Shown: positions 1 to 33,266 of the stretch, in pieces
How the letters are laid out: each line of letters opens with the position of its first letter
Numbering within the stretch: position 1 is the stretch's first letter
Source of the DNA: a virus
Strand: one strand, 5' to 3'
Length of the DNA: 33,266 nucleotides
IMG/VR virus record: IMGVR_UViG_3300009481_000051
Span: 1 to 33,266 of that record
Translations under genes and position numbers: made by a program
The notes under the pieces: generated by a model
Seen by the model: only the letters and a program-made list of their open reading frames with translations
Database searches by the model: none
Told to the model about the DNA's origin: nothing

Positions 1-85
1 GCGGCGCTAATCGTAATCACCACGCCAGAAACAGCCATGAGTATTTTACCGGACATGCCCGTCCACTTGGAAAGAAACAAGATAC
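1..85. repeat. Terminal overlap copy 1, identical to 33182-33266. It marks circular closure or terminal redundancy.
   Basis: Base-by-base comparison shows 1-85 = 33182-33266. The repeat lies inside a minus-strand ORF that reads through the junction. Confidence 0.95.
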
Positions 86-1791: not shown

Positions 1792-4248
1792 TTATCTCCC
1801 TATCGCATTACCAAAATCGGGAAGCCGCGCTCCACCACCGCCAAGCAAGGGCTGTCCCGGTTTATAAAAAAAGTCAGTATCATACTTTCTGGCATTTCGC
1901 ATCCTCCGTCTGAAAGCGCGGTGCGCTCGCGGGTCTACCAGTTGCTCAAGTTGGTCCAAAACCTCGCGGTTGTAGGCCGCGCTCAACGCCCAATGCGACC
2001 CGCCCGGCGTGTATCTGCGCAGAAATCCAACAGCCTCACTGGCCGCGCCCGTTCTCTCGCCCTTCATCAGTTGCTGCACGTTGCCAGCCGTCAATCGCAA
2101 CACATCGTCAGCGAGGCTTATAGTCGGGCCTGTCAGGGTCTCCGGCAAACCACCACCAAAGCGGTTGTAATCATCAAACAGGAAATCCCCGAATAGACCA
2201 AGGCCACCACCCTGCGCTGCCGCTGCGGTCCAAAACTTTCCCGTGGTCATATCGCGCGGGTCTTTGCCCTTGCTGATTTCTTTCAGTTGAATTGCCACCG
2301 CGCCAAGCAATGTTGCACCAACACTAAAGCTCGCCAGATAGCCAATAGCCCCAGCCGGACGGCCTGCGTAGGCTTCACGCACAACATGGCTAATGTGAGT
2401 GGTCAAGACAGTGACCGGAAACATTTTATACTGCATCCCGGACAAGCCAATCTCACCAATAAGCGTGCCGGGCTGGACGCGATCAAGAATGGCCGTCTTT
2501 GCCCGCATACTGTGCGTTGGCACCGCAAACTCGGTAAGCGATAATATCATTTCCTGATATTTATCCGCCAACCGTTGCCCGGCCACTTCCTCAATTTCCT
2601 GCGCCCGCAGAATTTCAACGCCGCCCTCTTTGTGAACATTGGCCGTCCGCATCAAATCCCAATCGCGGGCGGTAATGCCGTAATCCGCAAAAGTCCTTGC
2701 TGTTCCCCGGTCAAAATCGCCAAGCGCCTTGCTGTTCCAGTCAGTGCCAGCGTGGCTCATAAACTCCAACCCGAACAAATGTCGTCGTTGCTCAGTAATC
2801 CAGCCAAGGCCGGTTGATCTTATTACCGCCTCGGCAGTTCGTGACGCCCATTCAACGTGCATTTCTTCAAGCTCAAACCGCGCTGCCGCGTGGCCAATGT
2901 CAACACCGTTTTTAAAGATCAGACCGGCCTTGCTTGCCTGCTCGCGCATGGCCGGGCTTGCCAACATTTTCGCCATCGCTCTGACTGACGGAATATGGCC
3001 CATGCCCACGCGAGCCTTTGTGATCCGCGCCGCGTTAATGTCCGTCACCGAACTAAACACCGCGCGACCAAGCTGCGCAGCGGCAAGGGATGAACGGGTT
3101 GCCGACATAAAGCGGGCAAAGCCGGGATGACGTGGCGCATTCACCCGGCCAGTGTATCGAGCATAAAGACTTTTGGCTGTCTCGGTCGATCCGTGCGCCT
3201 TGCTCTTAGGGCCGTGACGCAACGCCTCTATTCTTTTGGCGCTGTCGATAAGGTGCTGAAAGCCAAGGTCGGGGTTGGGACCGAGAACCTCCATCCGGGC
3301 GATGTCCATTGCCATACTGTCAATGTGACCCATCATAATCCGAAAAATGTCCTGACCGCGCCCAAATTCCTGATTGTATTCAAGCCAAGCCTGCGCGTCC
3401 TTGAATTTGAAAAATCTGTGATCGGCCTTGCGGTTGTAAAGCGCCGACCCTCGGTTGCCCGGCTTCTTCCGTGTCCATCCGTCAGTACGGGCCGCGTGGA
3501 AAGAGCTATGCAAGTGCTTCTCAATCGACCGAGCGGTGAACGGCAGGCCGGTTGTTTCGTCAATCATATTGACCAGATCAAGTCGCGGCAAAATGAAGTC
3601 GCGCCAACCTTCAAACCCAGCCTTAACGATTGCCCGCGCATCGTGAAACTGCGGCAACCCCCAATCGGCTCGCTTTGGAATATGGCCACCGGCTGCGTTA
3701 AACCGGGTGCGCAATTCCTCGAAAACGCCTGACGCTACCCGCGCAAAATCCCGCGCCCGAACATTGCCGCTTGACCCGCCGAATATCTCGGTCGCCACGT
3801 CATCAAGGAGCGCCTTGTTTCGGCGAACCGTGAACATTGTCGAGCGAAACGCCTTGATTGCGTCAGTCATTCGGCCCCGCATTTTGCCAACAATAACATC
3901 CCGCCGCCCAACCAGTGTTTCACCGCGAGCGCCAAGGCGTTGCTCTACAACGTCTTTTGCAAACGCGCCCGCGTCCTCCACATTAAAGATGTTTTTGTGC
4001 GTGGTCATGCGCGACAGGTTGCGCTGCGCGGTCGCCGCCTGCAATTGACTGACGCGACGGCGCTGTGCCGCCATTGTTTTAGCCGCTTTCAAGACAGTAC
4101 GCGCGGTCTGCGCTTGGGCCTGCGTGTGGCCCATGTTGTTGCGCATTGACGCAAATACGTTGTCGTATTCTTCCAGTATCACCCGCGCCCGCGCTGGATC
4201 AATATCGCCCGCGTCTACCGCTCGCTTAACGCAATCCTGCCAACTCAT
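1792..4248 (-). CDS. Large internal virion/ejection-type protein (818 aa) with a C-terminal TM and Gly-rich segment
   Basis: The ATG at 4248 forms an ATGA overlap with the upstream stop; the track's GTG at 4254 is an alternative. The gene sits between the internal proteins and the tail fibre. The hydrophobic segment is GAIGYLASFSVGATLLGAVAIQL followed by GGGLGLFGDFLFDD. Confidence 0.6.
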   Translation of the reverse strand: MSWQDCVKRAVDAGDIDPARARVILEEYDNVFASMRNNMGHTQAQAQTARTVLKAAKTMAAQRRRVSQLQAATAQRNLSRMTTHKNIFNVEDAGAFAKDVVEQRLGARGETLVGRRDVIVGKMRGRMTDAIKAFRSTMFTVRRNKALLDDVATEIFGGSSGNVRARDFARVASGVFEELRTRFNAAGGHIPKRADWGLPQFHDARAIVKAGFEGWRDFILPRLDLVNMIDETTGLPFTARSIEKHLHSSFHAARTDGWTRKKPGNRGSALYNRKADHRFFKFKDAQAWLEYNQEFGRGQDIFRIMMGHIDSMAMDIARMEVLGPNPDLGFQHLIDSAKRIEALRHGPKSKAHGSTETAKSLYARYTGRVNAPRHPGFARFMSATRSSLAAAQLGRAVFSSVTDINAARITKARVGMGHIPSVRAMAKMLASPAMREQASKAGLIFKNGVDIGHAAARFELEEMHVEWASRTAEAVIRSTGLGWITEQRRHLFGLEFMSHAGTDWNSKALGDFDRGTARTFADYGITARDWDLMRTANVHKEGGVEILRAQEIEEVAGQRLADKYQEMILSLTEFAVPTHSMRAKTAILDRVQPGTLIGEIGLSGMQYKMFPVTVLTTHISHVVREAYAGRPAGAIGYLASFSVGATLLGAVAIQLKEISKGKDPRDMTTGKFWTAAAAQGGGLGLFGDFLFDDYNRFGGGLPETLTGPTISLADDVLRLTAGNVQQLMKGERTGAASEAVGFLRRYTPGGSHWALSAAYNREVLDQLEQLVDPRAHRAFRRRMRNARKYDTDFFYKPGQPLLGGGGARLPDFGNAIGR

Positions 4249-7200
4249 AAGCACAACTCCACTTGCTCTATAAACTCGTCGTCAGCATCCAGCTCATCCG
4301 CCAACTCTTGCCGCGAGATAGTGCGAACCTCAAGATCGCCGTCAGCATTTCGAAACTCGGCCACCGGAACCTCGTCAAACATATCAGCTTGCGCACGGGC
4401 AACATCATCAAACAGCCCGCCCGGCGCATCAGCGCCACCACGCAAAGGTGCCGATTGCAACGCCTCTAGTCGATCAAGCGGTGTGATCGGCTCAACGCCC
4501 TCAATTAAGAACTGGTCGCCTGCCGCAGTTCCCTCGCTCGCCTGATCGTTGAGCGCATCACCTCTGTTGGCAGGCGATCCCTGTCCGCGTCCCGGTAAAT
4601 CGTAACCGCTTCCCGTGAGGGGGTTTTCACCCTTTTGGCCGCTGATTGGCTTTGTTTCGGTTTTCGGTCCGTTGTTGTCGATTTCGGCATATCCTGCCTC
4701 CTTGCCTTCGTTTCTCAACGTGAGAAAAGTTTCATGGGGTTTTACCCCCACATCATCCAAAACCTTTGGCGGGATTAGCCGCCCGGTGTTTACAAAACGC
4801 AACATCATGCGCCTGTAAGCGGCTCGCGGTGAAACATCCATACTGACAATTCGCACCTTGTAACCGGCATTTCTAAACCGTTGCGATGTAGCTCTAATAG
4901 ATGACGGGTTGGAGCCGACTTTTGGATAAACGATATTTGTTCCATCCTCAATCATCGCTGCCTCAAGCCAGAACGTCAATTCCGCCCCTTCTTCATGCAC
5001 CGCATTAGAGCCAATGCCGCCACGAAATTCCGGGATTGTCTTTTTGATGTCGTCTGCGTCAACTATTGCAGCGCCGCGAGCCAGAGCTATGTTGTTGGCA
5101 ATCGTTGATTTGCCAGACGCCGGTGGACCCAAAACGATTGTGACCTCTTTGTCAGCACGAACGCCCGTAAACTCTGCACCAGTTTCGCCAGACGCCAGTT
5201 GTTCCGCTCGATCTATCCACCGGGCAAGCGCCTGATCTGTGCCAACAACTTCCACGCCGTCAAAGTCATAGACCCTGTTATCGTGCCACGCCTGCGTGGC
5301 GTATCTCGGAAATGTCGAGGTTTCCGGCAGCGCCTCCATGTCAGCGATTGCCTTTGTCACAGCCGGGTGACTGTCTATTGTCGCGCGATCTGCACCAGCC
5401 GCGATAACATCCCCTAGATCGGCCCGCGCCTTTTCGTCCGGTGAAAACCCCTCGCGCAAATCGTCGTTCTCGGCAATCCGCGTGGCCTCGATCTGGTCAG
5501 CCACGCCCGCACCGGCTGGATCGTCAAAATCTAAGTTGGGATCAGGTGGTTGCTCGCCCGCATCAACAGATTTCGCGCCTTGTCTTGGTGTGCGAGCTTC
5601 AAGCCCAGCGATACCATTTCGCTGAACCTCTGTTCTGACAGCGGTGGCAACGGCTTCGGCTGCGTCCTTGAGGCGACCTTTTTCTTTATACGCTTTCGCT
5701 TGGGCATTGAGTGCCTCCGATATTGGCCCGGCTCTATGGGCTGTTTTTTGAATGACCGCCAGCGATTGCTCAACCTCTTGTCGGGTCTCCCGGTTGCCTG
5801 TGCGGTCCAGTATGTTTTCGCGGCCTGTCTCAACCCTGTCCGCTTCATTGTCCAGTGTGCGAAACAGATTACGATCTTCCCGCAAAATCCGCATAGCCCG
5901 CTCAAGCACTTTGGCCCGCTCAATAAAAAGGCTCTCAACCACCTCACTGTCGCCAAACAGGTCTTTGGTGGTTTCCCGCGCAACAGGCGTTTCAAGCGCC
6001 TGCGCCACAATGCTTTCAGCCTGTGCAGTTGTTTCCGGGTTTGTCTTTTCCAGCAACCGGGCGATAGGGCCGTGCATTTCAATATCTTCGACCTTACGCC
6101 CAATCATGGCCGCGAACCGCTCCGGTATAACCTCGTTGATAAACAGATCAAACGCCTCGTCTGACAGGCGGGATAATTCTTTGGCGCGGACAATACCCGG
6201 CCCACTTGGCAACTCCGAAATCGCCTCCGGGGCAATGCGCAGAACCTTGGCCGCGTCCCGCGCCATCGCGCCTGTCAGGCCGTCCGCGCTTTCCGCGATG
6301 TTTTTCATGGCCGCAATGACGCGCATATCGTCAATCGAAAATCCGTCAACTTCCTTAAACACCCTCGCGGCGAGTTTAATGTCCTGTCCCGGATCAGCCG
6401 CCATAAGACGATTTGCCAAAGCAACGCGCTGGTGGCCGTCCGCAATCGCCCGACCGCCGTCAGCGTATTCATAAACCAACGTGATCCCTGCCCGCTCCGG
6501 CATCCATTTCTTGATCTTCAACAGCTTTTCCGTGACGCCGCCGGATGCAACGGTCGCGCTCTTGAATTGGAAGCGATCAGGCTGCACCAGCAAATCACCG
6601 GGCGCAACCTCTTCAATCTCGCCGCCTAAGATCGTTTTTAAGGGCCGTGTGGCGGCTGTTGGGCGATCAGGCACTGGAACCTCAGAAAAGTTGTCAGCCG
6701 CCACACGCGCCGCAGATTGCCTTGCCTGCGCCTCATTTACAGCCGCAGGGTCGCCATCTGGCGCGGCAACGGCTTCATCCTCCAAATCATTGATGATTGC
6801 CCGCCCTACAGCCGGAGCCTCTGTGGCAATGTCATCGGTCAAATTTTCGGCCAGCGCTTTTTCTGCCGCCCGCGCGTCTGCGATTGCCCGCCCGCTACGC
6901 GCCAAACCACCAAGCAGACCACCCAACATTGCCGTTGCAAGGACCGCCGTTGTCGCGCTTTCCTCTGGTAAACCAAGATCGCGCATGAATTGATTTCGAA
7001 ACGCAACAGCCGGAACCTCACTGCCACCAGCAACAGCGGCCTCTATCATCATTGTCGCGCCAATCCCCATACGCGATGTTGCGCCAATCGGCAGGGTCAG
7101 TATGACCTCCGCATTGTCCATGCTTGCAGACAGTTCGCCCAGAAAATCCGCCACCCCACCAAAACGCCCACCGCGCTCAATTATATCTGTTCTGACGTGA

Positions 7201-7610
7201 TACCGTAAACGCGCCTCGGCCTCGAATTTTTCCCGCTGTTGGTCAGCGCTTATGCCCTTCATGTAGTCCGGGCGCGGCTCGCCCAACGCATCCAGCTTTT
7301 CGAGCGCTGCCTGATAACGGTCAACGTCATTGGTCCAAGCCTGCAACGCCTGCCCGCCAAGGAACGGGCCAAAATCTTTAAGCTCAGACCTGATTGCATC
7401 AATCTCCGGCTGACCTTGGCGGCGATCCAAAACAGAAAGAACGTGCAATTTCAGCCCGCCGCGTATTCTATGCTCAAGCCGTTCGCGCGATGAAATCTCA
7501 AAAAACTCTTGCGCCCGGTAAAACGACGCCTGTTGAACCTCGCGGAATGTTGTGACCGGCCCGCGCGTGAGACCTATAGGCTCTTTGGTGAACTCAAGAA
7601 GTCCGGTCAT
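4245..7610 (-). CDS. Multidomain ('polyvalent'-type) virion protein (1121 aa) with N-terminal hydrophobic segments, a ParB/Srx-like domain and a zeta-toxin-like P-loop kinase domain
   Basis: ATGA overlap with the upstream gene. ParB-like motif lies at aa ~332-440: VAPGDLLVQPDRFQFK...ITLVYEYADGGRAIADGHQRVALANRL. Zeta-like kinase motif lies at aa ~820-965: VTIVLGPPASGKSTIANN...IVDADDIKKTIPEF...HEEGAELTFWLEAAMIEDGTNIVYPKVG...AGYKVRIVSMDVSPRAAYRRMMLRFVNTGRLIP. Confidence 0.7.
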   Translation of the reverse strand: MTGLLEFTKEPIGLTRGPVTTFREVQQASFYRAQEFFEISSRERLEHRIRGGLKLHVLSVLDRRQGQPEIDAIRSELKDFGPFLGGQALQAWTNDVDRYQAALEKLDALGEPRPDYMKGISADQQREKFEAEARLRYHVRTDIIERGGRFGGVADFLGELSASMDNAEVILTLPIGATSRMGIGATMMIEAAVAGGSEVPAVAFRNQFMRDLGLPEESATTAVLATAMLGGLLGGLARSGRAIADARAAEKALAENLTDDIATEAPAVGRAIINDLEDEAVAAPDGDPAAVNEAQARQSAARVAADNFSEVPVPDRPTAATRPLKTILGGEIEEVAPGDLLVQPDRFQFKSATVASGGVTEKLLKIKKWMPERAGITLVYEYADGGRAIADGHQRVALANRLMAADPGQDIKLAARVFKEVDGFSIDDMRVIAAMKNIAESADGLTGAMARDAAKVLRIAPEAISELPSGPGIVRAKELSRLSDEAFDLFINEVIPERFAAMIGRKVEDIEMHGPIARLLEKTNPETTAQAESIVAQALETPVARETTKDLFGDSEVVESLFIERAKVLERAMRILREDRNLFRTLDNEADRVETGRENILDRTGNRETRQEVEQSLAVIQKTAHRAGPISEALNAQAKAYKEKGRLKDAAEAVATAVRTEVQRNGIAGLEARTPRQGAKSVDAGEQPPDPNLDFDDPAGAGVADQIEATRIAENDDLREGFSPDEKARADLGDVIAAGADRATIDSHPAVTKAIADMEALPETSTFPRYATQAWHDNRVYDFDGVEVVGTDQALARWIDRAEQLASGETGAEFTGVRADKEVTIVLGPPASGKSTIANNIALARGAAIVDADDIKKTIPEFRGGIGSNAVHEEGAELTFWLEAAMIEDGTNIVYPKVGSNPSSIRATSQRFRNAGYKVRIVSMDVSPRAAYRRMMLRFVNTGRLIPPKVLDDVGVKPHETFLTLRNEGKEAGYAEIDNNGPKTETKPISGQKGENPLTGSGYDLPGRGQGSPANRGDALNDQASEGTAAGDQFLIEGVEPITPLDRLEALQSAPLRGGADAPGGLFDDVARAQADMFDEVPVAEFRNADGDLEVRTISRQELADELDADDEFIEQVELCL

Positions 7611-10126
7611 TCCTTCTCCAATTCAATCATATCAAACGTGACAACCCCACCGCCCTCAATCGAAAACGCATCGCCCCACCTGTCGATTGGCAAATAGGTC
7701 GTGCCACCAAGCGGCTTCATCTGGTCGATACTTCGCCGCAGCGCGGCAGGCGAAAAAGTGTGTTCCTTGGCGCTCACCACCGTACCGTGGCGGGACATCC
7801 ATCTTTCCAGATTAGAAACATCCAGCGCCGCCTTGAACCGCTTGCGATCCCAGCCCGGCGGCGCAATTGTATCAAAGCCCATTGTTGAGATTACCCCGCC
7901 TGTACCGTCCTGTTGACGGCCAAGGGCAATCTGATAACCAGCCTCCAAGTCAAAGGGGGACACAGCGGTTTCACCCCGCGCCAAGGCAAGGCCGCGCCCG
8001 TACAACTTGGCTGTTTCGTCCACGTTTTTCAGCGCCGTGCCTGTCAGATAATTCTGCACCTGTATTTCGGACATCACCCCGCTGCGGCCAGCGAGCATAT
8101 CAATGGTTGAAGTCCCTTCAAGCGCCACATCTGCGCTGCCGCGCAAGATCGTTTCTGCCGCTGTCTGGTTCCCGCCAGCATAGACAGACCCAGAGATAAA
8201 CAGAGCAGGCGAGCTTTGGCCCATAGCCTCGAATATCGCATTTGCCTGATCGACACCAAGGCCAGCGGTGACGCCCAAAAACGCGACCTGTGCCGCAACG
8301 CTCGCATCCTCAAAGGCTGCCGTAATGGCAGAGATTTCATGCGCTTCCAGCGGCACAGGGTTTTCAAATCCTTCCCGTGCGACCGGCTCGGCAAGAGCGG
8401 CAACGCGCGAAACAATAACGGCCCCAACATCCGCAAGCGTTTCGGCACCCTCAAAACTGTCAAGCGCGATCCCGCGCGAACTGGCAAATTCCACTGGTTT
8501 GGTTCGGGCCAGTTCTGTCTGGTGCTCACTGAACCCGGCAAGTCGCTCTAACAGCGCCGCCTGTCGGGCGTGTATGCGGGTAAATTCGCCACCCTTGGCC
8601 GCGATGTTGGCGAGACGTTCTGACGCGCCCTCAATGACCTCATGTCTCTGTTGTGCGGTAAAACCTTGCTCCGCCATCATTTCAACTTGTTTGTGAAATG
8701 CTTGTGTGTCCCGGATTTCCGCAATCAAATCCGCATTGCCCTGCGCATCATCAATCAATTGTTCGTAATTCACCTGATCTGACGAAGTGCCGTCCCGGAT
8801 AGACTGATCCACCAGCGGCAGGCCAATAGTCTCGGCATCCACCCCATCCAACAACTTTTCGTATATCGGCATCAAGCGGGCCAGCACCTTGCCCTCGGCC
8901 TCAATATCAACCCCGCCCAAATCAACAATCGCACGCGCATCCGCGCCAACCTGATCCATGTAAAGACGCAAGTTTTCGGCATCCATCCCGTGCGTGGCCA
9001 CATAGCTGTCAGCGATATAGAGTTGCGTTTCCAGTTTTTCCAGCAACGCCGCATCACCGCTGGCATCCGCACGCATCTGGGCGCGAACAGCCTCCGGCAC
9101 AGCAATAGGCTGGCCACCCTCGTCGGACATGGTGATAAATGCGTTGATCGTGTCCGTAAACCCGGTCTCAACCTGACCGCGGACGGCCTCTGCCGCCGCC
9201 CGTTTTCTGGTTTCGGCGGTATATGCGCGGGTGCGCATTGTCTTTAGAAGTTCAAGGCTTTCCTTTGCGCCAAGCGGCGAATTGCCAGAATAAACCAGCC
9301 CCGCAAATTCCTCCACGAAGGCGGACGGGTTTTCGGTCTGACCAAACTGCGCCTCAATCATCAACCGAGAACCAGCTTGCGCCGTCTCGGCCAAGCTCTT
9401 TTCAATGCCCTTGGCTGTCAGTGTTGCCATGCGTGTCGGGTCGGCTTTGAATTGAACGCCGCCGACCTCAAATTCACCACGCGGCCCAAACCGCGAAAGT
9501 TGATCCAACGACAGGTTCATGGCGTCATCAAGTTGCTGGGCGGTCGCGCCTGAAATAGCCAGCGTTTCAATCGTGGTTCGCCCAACCGCCAAAGCCTCGT
9601 CAGTTGCCGCCCGGTGCTGGGCGCGGACCCGTGCTGCCGCCACTGCCGCCGTCCGCCGTGTCGCAACATCGGCACCCCGGCGGAAAGCCTCGTCAAAATC
9701 TATCGCCAATCCCGGCAATTGCGTTTTAACTATCTCCGCCTGCATTTCGCCTTTGATTTTTTCCAGTTGGGCTGTAAGCGCACCGACATCGCCATTCGCT
9801 GACAGCATCGCCGCCGTCAGGCGTTTATCCAAATCCTCCATTGTGCGCGTTGTGATGATTTTGTCAGCGGCACCCATGAAGGCTGCGGATTTTACCGTGA
9901 AGGCGTGGCGCGGCTCAAACGTGTTGTTGTTGATCTGCGCAAGCGCTTCTTCTTCACCAAGCCGCTGTTGTTCGTCTACAACGGCGGGCCGAATAAAGTC
10001 ACGCGCCTTTTGGAAGCCCGCCGAAATTGCGTCCATTGTGCGCTCTGGGCCACGACCTAATTCCGGGCGTGGAGCCGGGCGGGTTCCCTCGGGCAGAAAC
10101 GGCCCATATCTGCGAACCTCTGCCAT
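7607..10126 (-). CDS. Internal virion protein (839 aa, Ala/Glu-rich, helical), in the T7 gp15 position
   Basis: Long ORF on the operon strand, placed after the small TM protein and before the 1121-aa protein. Its stop overlaps the next ATG (ATGA). Confidence 0.55.
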   Translation of the reverse strand: MAEVRRYGPFLPEGTRPAPRPELGRGPERTMDAISAGFQKARDFIRPAVVDEQQRLGEEEALAQINNNTFEPRHAFTVKSAAFMGAADKIITTRTMEDLDKRLTAAMLSANGDVGALTAQLEKIKGEMQAEIVKTQLPGLAIDFDEAFRRGADVATRRTAAVAAARVRAQHRAATDEALAVGRTTIETLAISGATAQQLDDAMNLSLDQLSRFGPRGEFEVGGVQFKADPTRMATLTAKGIEKSLAETAQAGSRLMIEAQFGQTENPSAFVEEFAGLVYSGNSPLGAKESLELLKTMRTRAYTAETRKRAAAEAVRGQVETGFTDTINAFITMSDEGGQPIAVPEAVRAQMRADASGDAALLEKLETQLYIADSYVATHGMDAENLRLYMDQVGADARAIVDLGGVDIEAEGKVLARLMPIYEKLLDGVDAETIGLPLVDQSIRDGTSSDQVNYEQLIDDAQGNADLIAEIRDTQAFHKQVEMMAEQGFTAQQRHEVIEGASERLANIAAKGGEFTRIHARQAALLERLAGFSEHQTELARTKPVEFASSRGIALDSFEGAETLADVGAVIVSRVAALAEPVAREGFENPVPLEAHEISAITAAFEDASVAAQVAFLGVTAGLGVDQANAIFEAMGQSSPALFISGSVYAGGNQTAAETILRGSADVALEGTSTIDMLAGRSGVMSEIQVQNYLTGTALKNVDETAKLYGRGLALARGETAVSPFDLEAGYQIALGRQQDGTGGVISTMGFDTIAPPGWDRKRFKAALDVSNLERWMSRHGTVVSAKEHTFSPAALRRSIDQMKPLGGTTYLPIDRWGDAFSIEGGGVVTFDMIELEKE

Positions 10127-10130
10127 TAGA

Positions 10131-10622
10131 TCACCCCGTCAGCCTAAATTCATCAACCAGTATGCCGCCAGCGTTAAGCAGTCCGCCCGTGAACGCCGCC
10201 CGGCTTTCCGACATCAAGCCGCGACTTCGCAGCCGGGCCATACGGGCGCGGCGTTGCGTATTTTTCCTTGATATACCAATGCGCCTTGTCGCCTCGCGCC
10301 GTGTCGCCTCACCTATATTTACTGGTGTACCAACTCCAACATCAAGACCATTGGCCAATTGAACAACCGTCTGATCCGCGCGTAAAGTCTCAAATTCTCG
10401 CGCCAAATCACGCGCCCGTTCGGCACCCGCAAGTTCCTCGTCCTGCGCCTCTATTTCCGCAAACTTGGCTTCCTGTTTTAGCCGCGATCTTTCTGCCGCG
10501 CCCTTGCCTATAGCAGCGAATGCAGAGCCAATTGAAAGCACCGTTGAAACTGTTGAAAGCGCACTCACAGCGCCCGCTGCCGGGGCGATTGCTGCGCCTA
10601 TAGCCATGAACATTGTTGCCAT
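10131..10622 (-). CDS. Small internal virion/membrane protein (163 aa), in the T7 gp13/gp14 position
   Basis: Hydrophobic N-terminus MATMFMAIGAAIAPAAGAVSALSTVSTVLSIGSAFAAIG followed by a charged helical region. It immediately follows the nozzle gene. Confidence 0.5.
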   Translation of the reverse strand: MATMFMAIGAAIAPAAGAVSALSTVSTVLSIGSAFAAIGKGAAERSRLKQEAKFAEIEAQDEELAGAERARDLAREFETLRADQTVVQLANGLDVGVGTPVNIGEATRREATRRIGISRKNTQRRARMARLRSRGLMSESRAAFTGGLLNAGGILVDEFRLTG

Positions 10623-20145: not shown

Positions 20146-20575
20146 GGCCGGTAGGGTCTGTGTCCCCGCCAGACGTTGGAATAACTTCGCCATACCCTTC
20201 ATCCCCCGGTGATCGACCGCTTTCATCCTGCCGGACAACCGGCCTTGTGGCCTTTGTTTTGACATCCCCGCTTACCATGCGCTGGGCATCAGCCCCGCCG
20301 TCAATGTGTTCCGGCTTTAAGTCGATAAAAAACTCTTGACTGTCCGCCCTGATCCACAGCCCCGGCTTGACGGGTAATTGTTCAGCCTGTGTGACGCGCA
20401 AGAACGTAGTCCGGCGTATGTGAATGCGGCCCTGACTGTCCAACCTCACGCTTTCCGGCCAAGGCCATGCGTCATTATCCACCACGACAAAGCGCGGCAA
20501 CATCGCCACATTGCCCTTGCAGGCGGCAAGCAGTGTTTTACGGCTTAAATCAATGTTGATGTCAGTCAAAGACAT
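20111..20575 (-). CDS. Hypothetical protein (154 aa)
   Basis: ATG at 20575 with GGAGGGG 6 nt upstream. It overlaps the TerL 3' end by 14 nt. Confidence 0.55.
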   Translation of the reverse strand: MSLTDINIDLSRKTLLAACKGNVAMLPRFVVVDNDAWPWPESVRLDSQGRIHIRRTTFLRVTQAEQLPVKPGLWIRADSQEFFIDLKPEHIDGGADAQRMVSGDVKTKATRPVVRQDESGRSPGDEGYGEVIPTSGGDTDPTGHVVATKRSKND

Positions 20576-22193
20576 TAAAATCCCCTCCACCGGCTGTCAC
20601 AACAACGGCCTTGTCTGACTTGCGCCGCCCGCCGATCCTCTCAAACTCGCCCATACCAAGCAGACCGTAGCCACCGCCGTCACATGGATGTGAGTAATCA
20701 TTCTTGACTGGCTTGTCAGAGAACGCAACCTCACCCGAGACCTGATAACGCTTGTAATGCCACGCCCCTGCAAGCCCTTTGCGAAACTTCGGGCAGCGCT
20801 CCGCCGACACCAGCAACCCCGGCTTGCCGTCAATAATGCGCTCGCACGGCCCAGCCAATGCGGCAATCCTCATTTTCGGGTCTTGGCTTGGCGCGGGTCT
20901 ACAGTCAAACCCGTGTTCAGCCCGAAGATAATCAAAGCTCGCGGTCTCGAATATTTCATCCCGGCTAACCCCGGCTGGATCACCCCAAAACGTGCCTATT
21001 TTGCCTTCCGTCACTTGTTTGGGGAAATGCTTCACCAAGTAGCTCGACACCAACTCGCCGAACCTCTTAACACCCATATCATAACAAACGACCTCGCCTT
21101 GCGCCAAGTGATTGCCGCGCGGGTGGCGTTGAAAAAAAATGGCGCTGGGCTGTAGCGTGCCGCCGCCAATATCCATTCCGACAACGACTTCTTCATCCTG
21201 CAATATCGCCATGCCTGAAATAGCCTGAGTGGCGTCGTGGTACTGTGGGACGCAGCGCCGCCCATCCTGCACGTAAACATAAACGCCCTGCAAGTAGCTT
21301 TGGATTTCTGCCAGCGTTTTCCCCGCCAGCGCCCGCCCGTAATAACTGTTGGCACCCAGCGGGTTTTCTTCGGCTGATACTCGGGACAGCGCCACCATGT
21401 TTTCGGCCCACGGGCTGACAATCCAGTGACGATCCGCAGCGGCAATTACCTCGATAGGGCAATCAACCCACTGCACCCGGCCCTTGAAGTAAATCAGAAC
21501 CTCCGCCGAACTGATCTTGACGCCCTCATGCTCCGGGAAATTTTCATCGTTGATGACCGCCCCGCCCCTTATTGGCGTGACCTCTAACACGCCCGGCGGC
21601 TGGTGGTAAAACTCGTAGCCGTCTGGCCGGTTCACCTTGTCCCATTCATAAAGCCAGTGGTCGGCGTCAGGCGCGTTTGTGTCACCCCACATGCCGGACC
21701 ACGTTGAAACGCGCTCGTTGATCCCGAAGCGACCAACCCGCTCGGTCACGCGAGAGACCACGGAGCGCGGTATTTCCCTAATTTCGTTAAGCGCCGCACC
21801 AGTCAATTCCAGCGACAACAGTTTTTTTACATCAGCCGGACGGTCAAGCGCAATGAAGTTGGTTTCGATTTCCAGCTTGCCACCGCGTGGCTTGAAATAA
21901 TGTGTCGGCGGGCTGCGCCAGATTATATCCCCGGTTTTGTGCGCGGGATAAACTTGTTGGAATGTGACGGCGGTGGTAGAGCGCAACTCAGGCATTGTGT
22001 TGCGAATGATGGCAAACCGCGAGCGCCTAACGCCGTCCGGGCTTGGGGCTTGAGCCGCCCCGATCTGCGCAATGCGCATCAACAGCGGCACGGTCTTGCC
22101 CGATCCGACAGGGCCAATTGCAAAGGATGCAAAGTTTCTGTCGTTTAGGATGTTAAACGCCACAGGGCTGGTTTCGAAATTCCACTCAGGCAC
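20562..22193 (-). CDS. terL: Terminase large subunit (543 aa)
   Basis: GTG start with AAGGAG 7 nt upstream. Walker A is FAIGPVGSGKT, followed by FAIIRNTMPELRSTT. Size and position are typical of TerL. Confidence 0.9.
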   Translation of the reverse strand: MPEWNFETSPVAFNILNDRNFASFAIGPVGSGKTVPLLMRIAQIGAAQAPSPDGVRRSRFAIIRNTMPELRSTTAVTFQQVYPAHKTGDIIWRSPPTHYFKPRGGKLEIETNFIALDRPADVKKLLSLELTGAALNEIREIPRSVVSRVTERVGRFGINERVSTWSGMWGDTNAPDADHWLYEWDKVNRPDGYEFYHQPPGVLEVTPIRGGAVINDENFPEHEGVKISSAEVLIYFKGRVQWVDCPIEVIAAADRHWIVSPWAENMVALSRVSAEENPLGANSYYGRALAGKTLAEIQSYLQGVYVYVQDGRRCVPQYHDATQAISGMAILQDEEVVVGMDIGGGTLQPSAIFFQRHPRGNHLAQGEVVCYDMGVKRFGELVSSYLVKHFPKQVTEGKIGTFWGDPAGVSRDEIFETASFDYLRAEHGFDCRPAPSQDPKMRIAALAGPCERIIDGKPGLLVSAERCPKFRKGLAGAWHYKRYQVSGEVAFSDKPVKNDYSHPCDGGGYGLLGMGEFERIGGRRKSDKAVVVTAGGGDFNVFD

Positions 22194-24405: not shown

Positions 24406-24861
24406 TCAGTCATCGGTATCCCCCTCGGTAAATTTTACGACAGCCTTCCTGTCGGTAACAGGCGCGATCTGGTTCATGGTAAATGTATTCTCGTTTTCTC
24501 CGGTCGGCCCGTCAACCCCCGGTTCTTTCCAATCGTGATTAACCTCCAGATTGAACTGTGCGCCCCGGCTCATTTTATTATCGTACAGCGCTTCCTCTGC
24601 AAATTCCTCAATTCGCTGCCTCGCACGCGCGTAAACGTGTGAATATTCATCCTTTGTCGCGTAGTTTATCAACCCCTTGCGAGACAGGCCCAGAAACAGC
24701 GCCAAGCCGGACATCGTTGGAACTCTTGTTGTGGGCAGTTCGATTTTATTCCCGTCAGCGCCGATGACTATTTCAACGCCACCACGGCTTTTGAAGTATT
24801 CTTCAATCCGTTCCTGCAAGTGCTTTTCCGACTTGAACGCGAGTTTTCCCCTAGTTGCCAT
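24406..24861 (-). CDS. terS: Terminase small subunit (151 aa)
   Basis: HTH motif PTMSGLALFLGLSRKGLINY and RGAQFNLEVNHDWKE match the TerS pattern I recall (Terminase_2-like). The ATG shares one base with the MTase stop. Confidence 0.7.
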   Translation of the reverse strand: MATRGKLAFKSEKHLQERIEEYFKSRGGVEIVIGADGNKIELPTTRVPTMSGLALFLGLSRKGLINYATKDEYSHVYARARQRIEEFAEEALYDNKMSRGAQFNLEVNHDWKEPGVDGPTGENENTFTMNQIAPVTDRKAVVKFTEGDTDD

Positions 24862-25487
24862 TATTTTGTAACCTTAAAAACCATGAAATACGAATGGTAG
24901 ACCCTCGCGTGTTTTTGCTTTGGCCGCTGACCGTTGACCTTTGGTTGTGGCATCCTGTGCTTCGCGTTGAGGATAAACATATCCAACAGACGAAACCCTA
25001 CTTCTGCCGCCCACACTGTTGCTAAGATGTGCGTAGGTTTTAGCGCGTGATTGTGGATTATGTCCTGACACTTCAAAATCATAATGCCTTTATCCCGCAA
25101 GACCCTTGCTACGTCCGCGAATGTCTGGCGATAGTGTTCTTCCAGCTCGTTATACCTCCAATATCCAGAAAACTTGTCCGCCATCACCATTCCGCCGTTT
25201 TCGTTTCTAGCCCCCGGCTTACTGGCTTTGACGTAACAAAGGAACGGAGGGTCGAACACAACACTTTTTAAGGCGTCGTTTATTACGGGAATGTTGGTTG
25301 ACGACGCGGTGATTGTGTCAGCCAGTCCCTCGTGAATATCGAACCGAAGGCCCGGCCGGGACGCCATCCTTTTATAGAACCCACCGTTTCCAAAAGTAAC
25401 ATCGCAATCGAACATTTCCCCATTGTTATGCAACTCCATTATCGCCGTGAGGATTTCCGTTTGATCGTATGATGTTGTTTTAATCAT
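24861..25487 (-). CDS. DNA methyltransferase (N6-adenine or N4-cytosine class, 208 aa); no cognate restriction enzyme seen
   Basis: SAM motif TFGNGGFY comes first, then catalytic motif VVFDPPFLC (DPPF). No restriction-enzyme-like neighbour is present. Confidence 0.75.
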   Translation of the reverse strand: MIKTTSYDQTEILTAIMELHNNGEMFDCDVTFGNGGFYKRMASRPGLRFDIHEGLADTITASSTNIPVINDALKSVVFDPPFLCYVKASKPGARNENGGMVMADKFSGYWRYNELEEHYRQTFADVARVLRDKGIMILKCQDIIHNHALKPTHILATVWAAEVGFRLLDMFILNAKHRMPQPKVNGQRPKQKHARVYHSYFMVFKVTK

Positions 25488-27227: not shown

Positions 27228-27791
27228 ATGACAAAGTACAAAATCACAGCAAAAACTAAAGTCCACTTTGGTATCACCCTACACCAAATTCAAGCAACAG
27301 TTTCTTTCGGCACTGTCGTGAAGGGTGAAATCGGCGGCTGGATCGAAACCGAGAAAAACCTAACTCAAGACGGCAATGCGTGGGTCTCTGGCAATGCGCA
27401 GGTCTTTGGCGGTGCGCAGGTCTCTGGCGATGCGCAGGTCTCTGGCGATGCGCAGGTCTTTGGCGATGCGCAGGTCTTTGGCAATGCGTGGGTCTCTGGC
27501 AATGCGCAGGTCTTTGGCGGTGCGCAGGTCTCTGGCGATGCGCAGGTCTTTGGCAATGCGTGGGTCTCTGGCGATGCGCAGGTCACACCACTTTATGTTC
27601 AGGGGTTAATGTGGCCGGTAACAATTACAGACAAGCACATCAGAATTGGCTGTGAATTTCACCCAATCTCTGAGTGGGAGAAGTTCGACAGTCGCCGCAT
27701 TCTTGAAATGGGAGGCAAGACCGCGCTGAAATTCTGGCAGACGTACAAAAATTTCATCTTGGGTATTGCCAAGACCGAAGAGCGGGGTTGA
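27228..27791 (+). CDS. Hexapeptide-repeat (left-handed beta-helix/bactofilin-like) protein (187 aa), first early gene
   Basis: AAGGGGA RBS. Twelve G-[NDG]-A-[QW]-V-[SF] hexapeptides are flanked by a conserved-looking N-terminus (GITLHQIQA...[13 protein letters not shown]) and C-terminus ([22 protein letters not shown]). Confidence 0.8.
27372..27587. repeat. 12 tandem copies of an 18-bp unit (GGCRRTGCGYRGGTCTYT)
   Basis: Read directly from the sequence. Units 1-3 (27372-27425) are identical to units 7-9 (27480-27533). All frames on both strands stay open across the array. Confidence 0.95.
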
Positions 27792-31962: not shown

Positions 31963-32201
31963 GCCTGTTCACCGCCCATGTCGCGGCAAACAACTTCTAT
32001 CCAAACCAACGTGGCCGGAATTGTGGTAAAATATTGTCGTATGTTTCGCTCTACCGTTGTCGTTTTCTCAAGGCAATCGTTTAAGCTGGCGTGAAATTCA
32101 ACAACCTCCGGCTGGTGTGCAGCCGTTACAACGCCAGCGTTGCAGCTCAGAATGCCGCTCGCCAGCGTTGCGCAGACATGGACAATGGCAATAAAGGACA
32201 T
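31959..32201 (-). CDS. Secreted or lipoprotein-like small Cys-containing protein (80 aa)
   Basis: The N-terminus MSFIAIVHVCATLASGILSC is a hydrophobic signal with a lipobox-like ILSC. The ATG has GGGGGA 7 nt upstream and overlaps the endolysin stop. Confidence 0.5.
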   Translation of the reverse strand: MSFIAIVHVCATLASGILSCNAGVVTAAHQPEVVEFHASLNDCLEKTTTVERNIRQYFTTIPATLVWIEVVCRDMGGEQA

Positions 32202-32866
32202 CACAAAATCCCCCGGCGCTGTTTGCTCACGCGGCTGTAAATGATGTAGCCAGCAAAGCCGACAACTGCCACCAGACCCACCGCAACGATTGCCTGTGCG
32301 ATAGGATCAAGCGCACCGATTGCCGCCAGCGCTGATCCGCTGGCCGTGGCCACCGTGCCGATTGCCGCCTTGTTGGTCCCGCTGTCAAAAAAGCTGGCCG
32401 TCTTGGGCTTGGCCTGCGTCAGCCATTCAGAGACATTGAAGCCGGGGCAGGCTTTGTTGGCAAACTCGTTGTGGCCCTTAACCCATTTTATCGTAGGATA
32501 CCGGGCTTTCAGTTCTTTAAGTTTCGCGCGCAGCCATGCGTCTTGCTTCGGTGTGAAGTGGTCGAAGAACTGGTCGGTCGCCGCACTGCCGTGACCGCCG
32601 AAAAGCACCAGCCCAATAGTGTTGCGGTTGTGGCCTTTGGTGTGCGCACCAATGTCATCAAACACATCGCCGTCACCGTCCAAATCGCGGCCCTTGGCTT
32701 CGGTGCCGTCACGGTCGCAGCCAAGGGCGTAACCTACGTCGCGCCAGCCGCGTTCTTCGACGTGCCAACGCTTGATTTCCGCCATTTTTTCGTCTGCGGA
32801 TTTGCCCGCCATCCAGTCGGGCCGCGTGTCGCTGCAATGAATGATTACGCCTTCGATCTGTCGCAT
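32201..32866 (-). CDS. N-acetylmuramoyl-L-alanine amidase endolysin (Amidase_2/T7-lysozyme-like, 221 aa) with a C-terminal transmembrane tail
   Basis: ATG at 32866 with GGAGAGGGAG upstream. Motifs are VIIHCSDT, RGWRDVGY and KGHNEFANKACPGF (His/His/Cys zinc-ligand pattern). The C-terminus reads IAQAIVAVGLVAVVGFAGYIIYSRVSKQRRGIL. Confidence 0.88.
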   Translation of the reverse strand: MRQIEGVIIHCSDTRPDWMAGKSADEKMAEIKRWHVEERGWRDVGYALGCDRDGTEAKGRDLDGDGDVFDDIGAHTKGHNRNTIGLVLFGGHGSAATDQFFDHFTPKQDAWLRAKLKELKARYPTIKWVKGHNEFANKACPGFNVSEWLTQAKPKTASFFDSGTNKAAIGTVATASGSALAAIGALDPIAQAIVAVGLVAVVGFAGYIIYSRVSKQRRGIL

Positions 32867-32929
32867 GGGTCTCCCTCTCCATCGGTGCCGAATGATCGAC
32901 AGGTAGCACAACCACAGAGGTAGGGCAAA

Positions 32930-33145: not shown

Positions 33146-33266
33146 GAGCCAACCCCTAGCAGCTTTACAAGAGCGAAGTACGCGGCGCTAATCGTAATCA
33201 CCACGCCAGAAACAGCCATGAGTATTTTACCGGACATGCCCGTCCACTTGGAAAGAAACAAGATAC
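33142..33266 (-). CDS. 3' part of the junction-spanning small TM protein gene; bases 33182-33266 duplicate 1-85
   Basis: It reads in frame from the copy of bases 1-85 and ends ...ISAAYFALVKLLGVGS* at 33142. Confidence 0.6.
   Translation of the reverse strand, partial: ILFLSKWTGMSGKILMAVSGVVITISAAYFALVKLLGVGS
33182..33266. repeat. Terminal overlap copy 2, identical to 1-85
   Basis: Direct comparison of the two ends. Confidence 0.95.

Follow-up and report, generated by a model that had tools for sequence, protein, structure and literature searches.

The window analysed here (that is, the whole stretch of 33,266 nucleotides that makes up positions 1 to 33,266 of the IMG/VR virus record IMGVR_UViG_3300009481_000051) carries on its minus strand, at positions 4245–7610, a gene for a protein of 1,121 amino acids in which a domain with a predicted ParB/Noc-like fold is joined to a zeta-like P-loop kinase (Table 1). 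In agreement with a first-pass annotation made from the letters of the window, the open reading frame (ORF) is free of internal stops, and the identical 1,121-residue protein is recorded in three independent assemblies or samples. Its start ATG shares ATGA with the stop of an 839-residue gene upstream, and its own stop shares ATGA with the ATG of a ~820-residue gene downstream; with a ribosome-binding site (GGAGAAGGA) immediately 5′ of the start, the gene appears to be translationally coupled within a tail-tube and internal-protein operon of the epsilon15/BcepC6B type. The minus-strand series runs from the large terminase, portal (PF12236), T7-type scaffold and major capsid protein (PF19821) to the tube proteins (tube A-like, 211 residues; tube B-like, 959 residues) and a 163-residue internal virion protein, and ends with the 839-residue protein, the target of this analysis (hereafter, the 1,121-residue protein), the ~820-residue protein and a fibre that bears an S74 chaperone domain.

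A search of 5.8 billion proteins returned 317 homologues, mostly on contigs of 33–37 kb, the best 120 of which were mapped by BLAST onto the 1,121-residue query and supply all architecture counts given here. The alignments break sharply and recurrently at residue ~712 and a second time at residues ~1010–1075, revealing a plan of constant scaffold (residues 1–712), variable cassette (residues ~713–1013) and constant acidic tail. The tail (28 aspartates and glutamates against 8 lysines and arginines, with the motifs GLFDD and DMFDE) is kept in most family members, most of the cassette-less forms included. A zeta-like cassette is present in 70 of the 120 homologues, four of which add an ART-PolyVal domain (PF18760, E = 8e-20); a GNAT domain is added in one protein (P0104), and another (P0107) has a sub-threshold GNAT match only. 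Thirty homologues carry an alternative cassette of ~290 residues that Pfam does not recognise; given that its profile matches Tas1 (PDB 6ox6, E = 4e-14) and a small alarmone synthetase (8vx3), this is predicted to be a Tas1-like pyrophosphokinase of the RelA/SpoT type, a kind of enzyme known among delivered (p)ppApp-synthesizing toxins (PMC12691689, PMC12226406). The other 20 match none of the three cassette profiles, and 17 of them are short cassette-less forms (765–858 residues). Some members add a second ParB-like segment.

The same gene order (major capsid protein, tube A, tube B, a ~180-residue internal protein, an 840–1,120-residue protein, the target homologue, the ~820-residue protein and the fibre) is found in seven metagenomic relatives, three of them zeta-bearing, three Tas1-bearing and one cassette-less. 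The closest isolate, the 37-kb 'Dunaliella viridis virus SI2', has a syntenic 792-residue protein that covers residues 142–712 and the last ~45 residues only and thus lacks the kinase. The zeta module behaves as an exchangeable cassette, in whose place sister phages put a Tas1-like toxin domain. One Tas1-type sister phage also carries, beside its head genes, a 63-residue gene (L005:206–397) that matches Acb2_Tad1_hairpin (PF24729), which comprises signal sponges of the anti-CBASS/anti-Thoeris kind; in the window, we noticed no counterpart.

The kinase that fills the slot in the window is recognised by Pfam as Zeta_toxin (PF06414, residues 820–968; E = 2.2e-18, 66.9 bits against a cut-off of 22.3), so that the zeta-like domain annotated earlier at nucleotides ~4716–5153 stands, and the profile of the kinase family matches zeta (1gvn, E = 4e-9) and PezT (2p5t, E = 7e-6). 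An AlphaFold2 model of residues 765–1000 (predicted local distance difference test (pLDDT), 92.6) is closest to zeta and PezT, with AvrRxo1 and polynucleotide kinases ranking after them; against zeta (3q8x/1gvn), the match has a Foldseek E of ~1e-9, a template modelling (TM) score of 0.67 and a root mean square deviation of 2.7 Å over 203 columns. The core carries an N-terminal extension of ~55 residues (a β-hairpin and a helix, residues ~765–819), and the zeta part also matches the 'minor head protein' PHROG 16619 and the head-morphogenesis protein of cyanophage PSS2. A phmmer search with the whole 1,121-residue protein against the PDB gave nothing useful. The kinase cassette also occurs beyond the family itself: when its profile was searched exhaustively, 1,164 clusters (50% identity) matched at E ≤ 1e-30, the proteins ranging from 239 to 6,889 residues and holding the cassette at many positions, some together with LPD38 or RadC.

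The residues expected of a working kinase are in place: Walker A GPPASGKS (K834), D851-x-D853, K856, VHEE (H872, E874), PKVG (residues 896–899), R934, R938 and R944. HMMER alignments to zeta and PezT set K834 against the Walker A lysine K46, D853 against the catalytic D67 and R938 against R158; all three are invariant in the 139 wider kinase representatives (sequences at ≤50% identity), and the Walker A lysine, D-x-D, K856, V-H-x-E-S, P-K-V-G, R934, R938 and R944 are each kept in 129–139 of the 139. The GTXR motif of zeta toxins, which is needed for binding of UDP-N-acetylglucosamine (UDP-GlcNAc, also UNAG; PMC6362051), has no such counterpart: in the zeta and PezT alignments alike, zeta E-G-T-G-R-T (GTXR, zeta G117–T121) aligns to Y-P-K-V-G-S (K897-V898-G899-S900), GTXR occurs in 0 of the 70 zeta-bearing family members and in 0 of the 139 wider representatives, and zeta E100 is without a match. 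As far as sequence can tell, conservation of this kind is what one expects of an enzyme that is active and whose substrate site is conserved and unlike the UNAG site. Because GTXR is replaced by an invariant VHxES/PKVG signature, the substrate is probably other than UDP-GlcNAc, and another small phospho-acceptor (for example, a nucleotide or nucleotide-sugar-like molecule) appears more likely. Zeta-family members with non-UNAG substrates are known (AvrRxo1, ng_zeta1 and PezT-Mtb), and PezT-Mtb likewise lacks GTXR.

An antitoxin was looked for at several levels. Both neighbours of the gene are large structural genes joined to it by ATGA, leaving no adjacent antitoxin gene, and no epsilon- or PezA-like Pfam domain is present in the 20 smaller window ORFs scanned, as the first-pass annotation had noted of the vicinity. 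No small ORF lies directly 3′ of the target homologue in the seven metagenomic relatives. When window ORFs of at least 45 residues were compared with three zeta-bearing, three Tas1-bearing and two cassette-less relatives, no gene co-varied with cassette type within ±10 kb in each (the genomes of the relatives being partly covered); the sole followers of the zeta pattern were antisense ORFs inside the cassette itself.

The second module lies in the constant scaffold. An AlphaFold2 model of residues 325–650 (pLDDT 84, from a 22-sequence alignment) has Noc and ParB as its best PDB matches (7nfu, Foldseek E = 6e-5; 6sdk; 7bnk; 6t1f), each with a probability of 1.0 over ~220 columns, and sulfiredoxin ranks next. 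As the match takes in both an N-terminal lobe (residues 332–440) and the helical domain behind it, residues 332 to ~550 are predicted to adopt a ParB/Noc-like fold. The earlier assignment of a ParB/sulfiredoxin-type domain to nucleotides ~6291–6617 thus holds as a predicted fold and fails by sequence methods: neither ParBc (PF02195) nor a related Pfam model matches the 1,121-residue protein or its homologues at E ≤ 1, the family profile of the region has no match in the PDB, and hhalign against a Spo0J sequence (an approximate query) was negative. The lobe has invariant motifs, FQFK (residues 347–350), DGHQR (residues 391–395) and N437, and an invariant DLFG β-hairpin follows in the scaffold at residues 550–553. 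DGHQR comes after strand 3, where the pocket motif G-x-x-R of ParB is expected; by manual comparison, which no alignment bears out, it might correspond to the GERR box of ParB, and the QPR and ENLQR boxes might have their counterparts in FQFK and N437. Matches in BFVD include phage ParB/Spo0J models, and the top ones are phage proteins of 1,100–1,400 residues, some named 'Large polyvalent protein associated domain-containing protein'; the module also resembles the C-terminal extension of a long 'portal protein' (PHROG 21). As for partition (ParABS), the scanned ORFs of the window include no recognisable ParA-like gene (no search for parS sites was made) and, unlike a partition ParB, the domain is embedded in a protein of the virion module.

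Between the start and this module lie the two hydrophobic segments reported by the first-pass annotation, which are indeed present (residues ~167–200 and 218–238), Gly/Ala-rich and conserved in position across the family; with a Kyte–Doolittle 19-residue maximum of 1.6, they are borderline as membrane helices. A short motif, D-[LM]-F-[GD]-[DE], recurs along the protein (window positions 5949–5963, 4404–4421 and 4371–4385; residues 550–554, 1064–1069 and 1076–1080), with an invariant copy in the β-hairpin of the constant module and further copies in the constant tail and near module boundaries of relatives; it could be a docking or processing site.

Table 1 Features of the gene for the 1,121-residue protein and of the adjoining genes, in window coordinates
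Feature	Position	Strand	Basis
Whole gene, polyvalent internal/ejection-type protein (predicted)	4245..7610	(-)	Translation, gene junctions, identical records
N-terminal constant region, residues 1–330	6621..7610	(-)	Without database family; kept in most family members, with or without cassette
Two Gly/Ala-rich hydrophobic segments, candidates for membrane insertion	6897..7112	(-)	Hydropathy, profile comparison
ParB/Srx-fold lobe (predicted), residues 332–440	6291..6617	(-)	Predicted structure, conserved motifs
Helical continuation of ParB/Noc-like module and coiled helical region (predicted), residues 441–712	5475..6290	(-)	Predicted structure, homologue mapping
Variable cassette, residues ~713–1013 (zeta-like kinase here)	4572..5474	(-)	Homologue mapping
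Zeta_toxin (PF06414) P-loop kinase core, residues 820–968	4707..5153	(-)	Pfam, profile alignments
Constant acidic C-terminal tail, residues 1014–1121	4248..4571	(-)	Homologue mapping, composition
163-residue internal virion protein (phrog_418), first of the ejection-protein block	10131..10622	(-)	PHROG match
839-residue upstream partner, positional equivalent of epsilon15/phiV10 gp15	7607..10126	(-)	Position, homologues
~820-residue downstream virion structural protein (phrog_684)	1792..4254	(-)	Homology to epsilon15/phiV10 gp17 type and BcepC6B gp17

Outside the viral contigs, the ParB-like module is found at 76 loci of bacterial genomes, nearly all of Alphaproteobacteria (Rhodobacteraceae, Stappia, Aureimonas, Brevundimonas, sphingomonads and Hyphomicrobium), with the best match in a Rhodobacteraceae metagenome-assembled genome (66% identity); many of these loci lie inside megabase contigs and are therefore taken to be prophages. 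The proteins concerned have 770–3,864 residues, a gp17-type gene stands directly 3′ in 56 of the 76 loci, and tube genes stand 5′ in ~27. Giant versions (2,800–3,700 residues) carry InPase, LPD38, MuF_C, ART-PolyVal and an SNF2 helicase, and homologous modules recombine with PF18760, PF18857, PF18819, PF18823 and RadC. Since the module co-occurs with InPase, LPD38 and MuF_C, the protein counts as polyvalent in the sense of Iyer et al. (2017), that is, as having at least two disparate domains in one ORF among virion genes, and the earlier 'polyvalent' label was apt. Proteins of 3,284–3,864 residues with the ParB-like module are found in Halocynthiibacter, Mameliella and Salipiger prophages (L017:5805–16877, L019:5850–15701 and L038:5280–16871, respectively), the first two of which, the ones scanned with Pfam, also have InPase, an SNF2-type helicase, MuF_C, LPD38 and ART-PolyVal. 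Among cultured phages, the roseophage Ruegeria phage 45A6 (L089:4781–14879; KT820175.1 24146–35884) encodes a 3,912-residue hypothetical protein with the module (40% identity over target residues 347–646), so that virion proteomics could start from this phage.

The first and last 85 nucleotides of the window (1–85 and 33182–33266) are identical, a direct overlap that indicates a circularly closed genome of ~33,181 bp (~33.2 kb); a second assembly of the same phage has 33,251 nucleotides. No tRNA or integrase-sized ORF was recognised in the window, and the host is presumably a marine alphaproteobacterium. When the rest of the window was compared with phage genomes by megablast, no close relative came up. 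A P22 gp3-type small terminase (GP3_package, E = 2e-14) is encoded at 24406–24861 (-), ~2.2 kb upstream of the large terminase (20562–22193 (-)), with six or seven small unannotated ORFs in between and a DNA methyltransferase (24861–25487) just before the small terminase. The plus-strand early block opens with a gene at 27228–27791 (+) for a 187-residue protein with YdcK β-solenoid/bactofilin-like repeats (PF18836, E = 6e-10; phrog_5070, E = 3e-44). The fibre gene is followed, just short of the circular junction, by the gene for a dedicated amidase endolysin (32201–32911 (-); phrog_822, E = 3e-44).

The setting of the gene places the protein after tube A, tube B and the small internal protein and before the fibre. 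Homologues of the ~820-residue protein also occur in Vibrio phage VP2, F116-like Pseudomonas phages and Pelagibacter podophages, and phages of this gp17 type share the order tube B, one or two small internal proteins, a ~700–840-residue protein, a 390–760-residue middle protein, the gp17-type protein and the fibre; on the strength of this matching order, the target is the positional equivalent of the epsilon15-type middle protein. The first-pass annotation had put the gene in a T7-type slot between a gp15-like protein and the tail fibre; the internal/ejection-protein operon is there, and the ~820-residue virion protein intervenes before the fibre in a module that is nearer to epsilon15, phiV10 and BcepC6B. 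The middle proteins of phiV10 (L082:9797–11599), BcepC6B (L090:3011–5302) and Pseudomonas phage YA3 (L092:3198–5120) have their N-terminal ~300 residues and last 40–60 residues in common and diverge in between, where BcepC6B gp16 holds an SLT domain; this is the same plan of constant ends and variable middle as in the target family. Direct similarity is slight: BLASTP found none that was significant between the target and phiV10 gp16, or between the 839-residue neighbour and the phiV10 protein at the same position, phmmer of both large neighbours against the PDB gave nothing useful, and hhalign against middle proteins of the epsilon15/phiV10 gp16 type gave a probability of 72% (E = 3e-5) over residues 142–238, the hydrophobic region, and E = 0.05 for the tail. 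The upstream protein is itself mosaic: in three sister phages (L083:6789–10001, L087:6834–10004 and L088:6834–10013) it has 1,056–1,070 residues and includes an SLT lytic transglycosylase domain (PF01464), which is missing from the 839-residue copy here; among sister phages, the zeta cassette shows no correlation with absence of SLT from the upstream protein.

These features invite comparison with several known systems. ParB-superfamily domains have been described as hubs of phage polyvalent proteins, which are predicted to be packaged and injected with DNA, and zeta-like kinases, found there in conjugative-element polyvalent proteins and MuF fusions, were proposed to weaken the cell wall (Iyer, Burroughs, Anand, de Souza and Aravind 2017, J Bacteriol; PMC5512222). 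The statement in the first-pass annotation that none of the roles considered was established for this kind of phage therefore overstates the novelty and, as polyvalent injected proteins with ParB- and zeta-type domains were published in 2017, no new category is at issue. Like those proteins, the target is a large multidomain protein among virion genes with unrelated enzymatic domains and a ParB-superfamily hub, and its relatives carry zeta-like kinase, RelA/SpoT, ART-PolyVal, GNAT, InPase, LPD38 and MuF_C domains. Unlike them, it is small (1,121 residues with two recognisable enzymatic or binding modules) and without the MPTase processing peptidase; its ParB-like part has no Pfam match and resembles chromosomal ParB/Noc (N-terminal lobe plus helical domain), not having been shown to be DdrB-like; its payload is an internal cassette between constant ends; and the zeta-like kinases of PMC5512222 are not on a podoviral ejection-protein scaffold.

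With zeta and PezT of the epsilon–zeta and PezAT systems (1gvn, 3q8x and 2p5t), the target shares the P-loop kinase fold, the Walker A lysine and the equivalents of D67 and R158; it differs in having neither GTXR nor a partner antitoxin, in the invariant VHxES and PKVG signature, in the N-terminal extension and in being embedded in a protein of the virion module. The MuF polymorphic toxins of temperate phages likewise combine a constant virion-associated domain with variable toxin domains, including RelA-like/(p)ppApp synthetase (for example, the characterised Apk2; PMC12226406) and ADP-ribosyltransferase domains, and are hypothesised to load in the capsid and be delivered with DNA. However, 89% of MuF genes are followed by a small downstream ORF (Jamet et al. 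2017, PMC5576092), whereas the target has no such immunity ORF and no MuF domain, its variable part is internal rather than C-terminal, and its hosts are Alphaproteobacteria with podovirus-type modules rather than, as is mostly the case for MuF, Firmicutes with siphoviruses. Podoviral ejection proteins are mosaics with membrane segments, and T7 gp16-C combines such segments with a hub that binds DNA on the cytoplasmic side (PMC8954989). The target resembles them (T7 gp14–gp16; P22 gp7/gp20/gp16; epsilon15/phiV10 and BcepC6B gp15–gp17) in operon position, hydrophobic segments and mosaic gain and loss of enzymatic domains (for example, SLT in T7 gp16, BcepC6B gp16 and the upstream protein of sister phages), and departs from them in that it has no significant pairwise similarity and that the characterised ones have no ParB-like or kinase domain. 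Tas1, a (p)ppApp synthetase toxin of Pseudomonas aeruginosa delivered by the type VI secretion system (6ox6), is homologous to the alternative cassette of sister phages; as no Tas1-like domain is present in the window, Tas1 bears only on the use of the slot, which this homology shows, at the level of sequence, to host domains used elsewhere as delivered antibacterial toxins. In the literature searched, we found nothing specific on a virion-packaged zeta kinase in podoviruses and, as far as this search goes, no description of such a scaffold (a middle ejection-block protein in small epsilon15/BcepC6B-like phages of Alphaproteobacteria), of an internal cassette between constant ends or of an explicit lack of the UNAG motif in this large zeta-like branch.

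On the basis of the folds, motifs, cassette architecture, synteny and distribution described above, we propose that the target is the middle, polyvalent protein of the ejection block, carrying a kinase payload that is delivered with the DNA, acts on a small acceptor other than UNAG and perturbs the host nucleotide pool, a reading that we consider moderately probable; packaging, ejection, membrane topology, substrate and physiological role are what we infer. After ejection, the N-terminal region with its hydrophobic segments may help to build or anchor a trans-envelope channel in the inner membrane, as in gp16-type proteins of T7 and P22. The ParB/Noc-like module, which is kept by every family member and thus probably serves a core function, would then lie on the cytoplasmic side and bind, clamp or nick DNA in a nucleotide-dependent manner. 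The third part would be an exchangeable payload slot and, without the constant acidic tail, the protein might fail to enter the particle or to contact the protein that follows. In the window, the payload would be a zeta-family P-loop kinase, predicted to be catalytically intact, that enters with the DNA at the start of infection. That sister phages have a Tas1-like adenosine-nucleotide pyrophosphokinase in the same slot suggests a shared purpose, namely an attack on host nucleotide metabolism or signalling at entry, and the likeliest role would be a rapid enzymatic perturbation of the host nucleotide or metabolite pool, either for takeover or against defence systems or competing elements. The genomic context, by analogy, supports the injected effector that the first-pass annotation had envisaged.

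Several points weigh against this proposal. Packaging in the virion is argued from gene position and analogy, and homology to a proven ejection protein is weak, given the negative BLASTP and an hhalign match confined mainly to the hydrophobic region. The ParB assignment comes from predicted structure only, the residues for nucleoside triphosphate binding not being alignable by sequence, and the hydrophobic segments are borderline for membrane helices by the Kyte–Doolittle value given above. A toxic payload would also be expected to need an immunity gene, and none is adjacent or co-varies within ±10 kb.

This last point would be easier to explain if the enzyme never acted in a cell that must survive, as would be the case for a protein that is not ejected but is a tail-hub or assembly component staying with the particle, or a non-virion morphogenetic factor, its kinase-like domain being an assembly NTPase or acting late in the producing cell. 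Some genetic work reportedly puts epsilon15 gp15, gp16 and gp17 in the tail hub and not in the internal core. However, the slot domains (Tas1-like, ART-PolyVal and GNAT) have as their known relatives toxins that are delivered or enzymes that modify the host, cassette-less forms occur naturally in otherwise syntenic phages (and so the cassette should be dispensable for particle assembly), and other phages have ParB-like and zeta modules as fusions with head proteins of the portal or MuF type. A review of podoviral ejection proteins moreover counts the proteins of the epsilon15 block among the homologues of gp14–16 (PMC8954989), and we regard a non-ejected protein as quite unlikely.

A classic zeta toxin, as the first-pass annotation suggested, would phosphorylate UDP-GlcNAc at its 3′-OH, the product inhibiting MurA and weakening peptidoglycan synthesis, which might ease DNA entry or later lysis. 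The closest relatives in solved structures and in sequence are indeed zeta and PezT, with D853 (zeta D67), the Walker A lysine and the arginine equivalent to R158 conserved; the upstream partner here is without the SLT domain that some sister phages carry; and the same role has been proposed before (PMC5512222). Yet GTXR is replaced by P-K-V-G-S, and is missing in all 70 zeta-bearing members and all 139 wider representatives, zeta E100 is unmatched, and other substrates are known within the family, so that poisoning of MurA through UDP-GlcNAc finds no footing in the conserved substrate site. Moreover, the presence of zeta is uncorrelated with the absence of SLT among sister phages, and a cytoplasmic block of precursor supply would be too slow to aid DNA entry. 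For lysis, the phage is equipped with an amidase, which also makes the late assistance to lysis once proposed for the kinase unlikely. We judge a classic zeta activity to be very improbable.

We rate just as low a nucleic-acid end kinase, that is, a polynucleotide 5′-kinase that would act on the ends of phage or host DNA or RNA jointly with the ParB-like module, the latter binding or nicking DNA (for instance, to mend damage done by restriction enzymes or anticodon nucleases, or to process the termini of the incoming genome): the family profile matches the Pnkp1 kinase domain (4xrp, E = 1.5e-6), PHROG 505 'polynucleotide kinase' is also matched (E = 1e-6), Clostridium polynucleotide kinase structures reach a TM score of 0.50, the D-x-D-x-x-K motif after the P-loop is common to polynucleotide kinases and zeta kinases, and a DNA-binding fold is predicted in the same polypeptide, but zeta and PezT match more strongly, both by sequence and in structure (TM 0.67 over ~200 columns versus 0.50 over ~150), no phosphatase or ligase partner domain is present, and the cassette is independent of the ParB module, being swapped for the Tas1-like one, absent, or found in many proteins at unrelated positions. 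The same distribution led us to reject ParB and zeta as a functional pair: the two are independent modules, ParB belonging to the constant scaffold and zeta being one of several inserts.

Returning to the proposed delivery of a kinase payload, a more far-reaching version, which we put forward as speculation with a small chance of being right, concerns the scaffold and the kinase branch together. The scaffold could be a ParB-type nucleotide-gated DNA clamp that, on the cytoplasmic side of the ejection channel, holds, ratchets or shields the incoming genome, with the slot behind it serving as a general payload bay for interchangeable nucleotide-directed enzymes, and the GTXR-less kinases could be a subfamily that phosphorylates a nucleotide-type molecule against host defence. 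If so, the GTXR-less 'VHxES/PKVG' kinases would form a large subfamily (more than 1,000 clusters at 50% identity), and phosphorylation of NAD-related or immune-signalling nucleotides would disarm host defence at entry with no need for an immunity gene.

In summary, syntenic phages of ~33–37 kb that differ in one internal slot (which is filled by a zeta-like kinase or a Tas1-like pyrophosphokinase, has an ADP-ribosyltransferase added or is empty) provide a natural experiment on cargo that would be delivered together with DNA. Because the variation is confined to a single slot, the role of virion-delivered enzymes would be directly testable by cassette swaps. The finding also points to a large, conserved branch of zeta kinases with an evidently non-textbook substrate.

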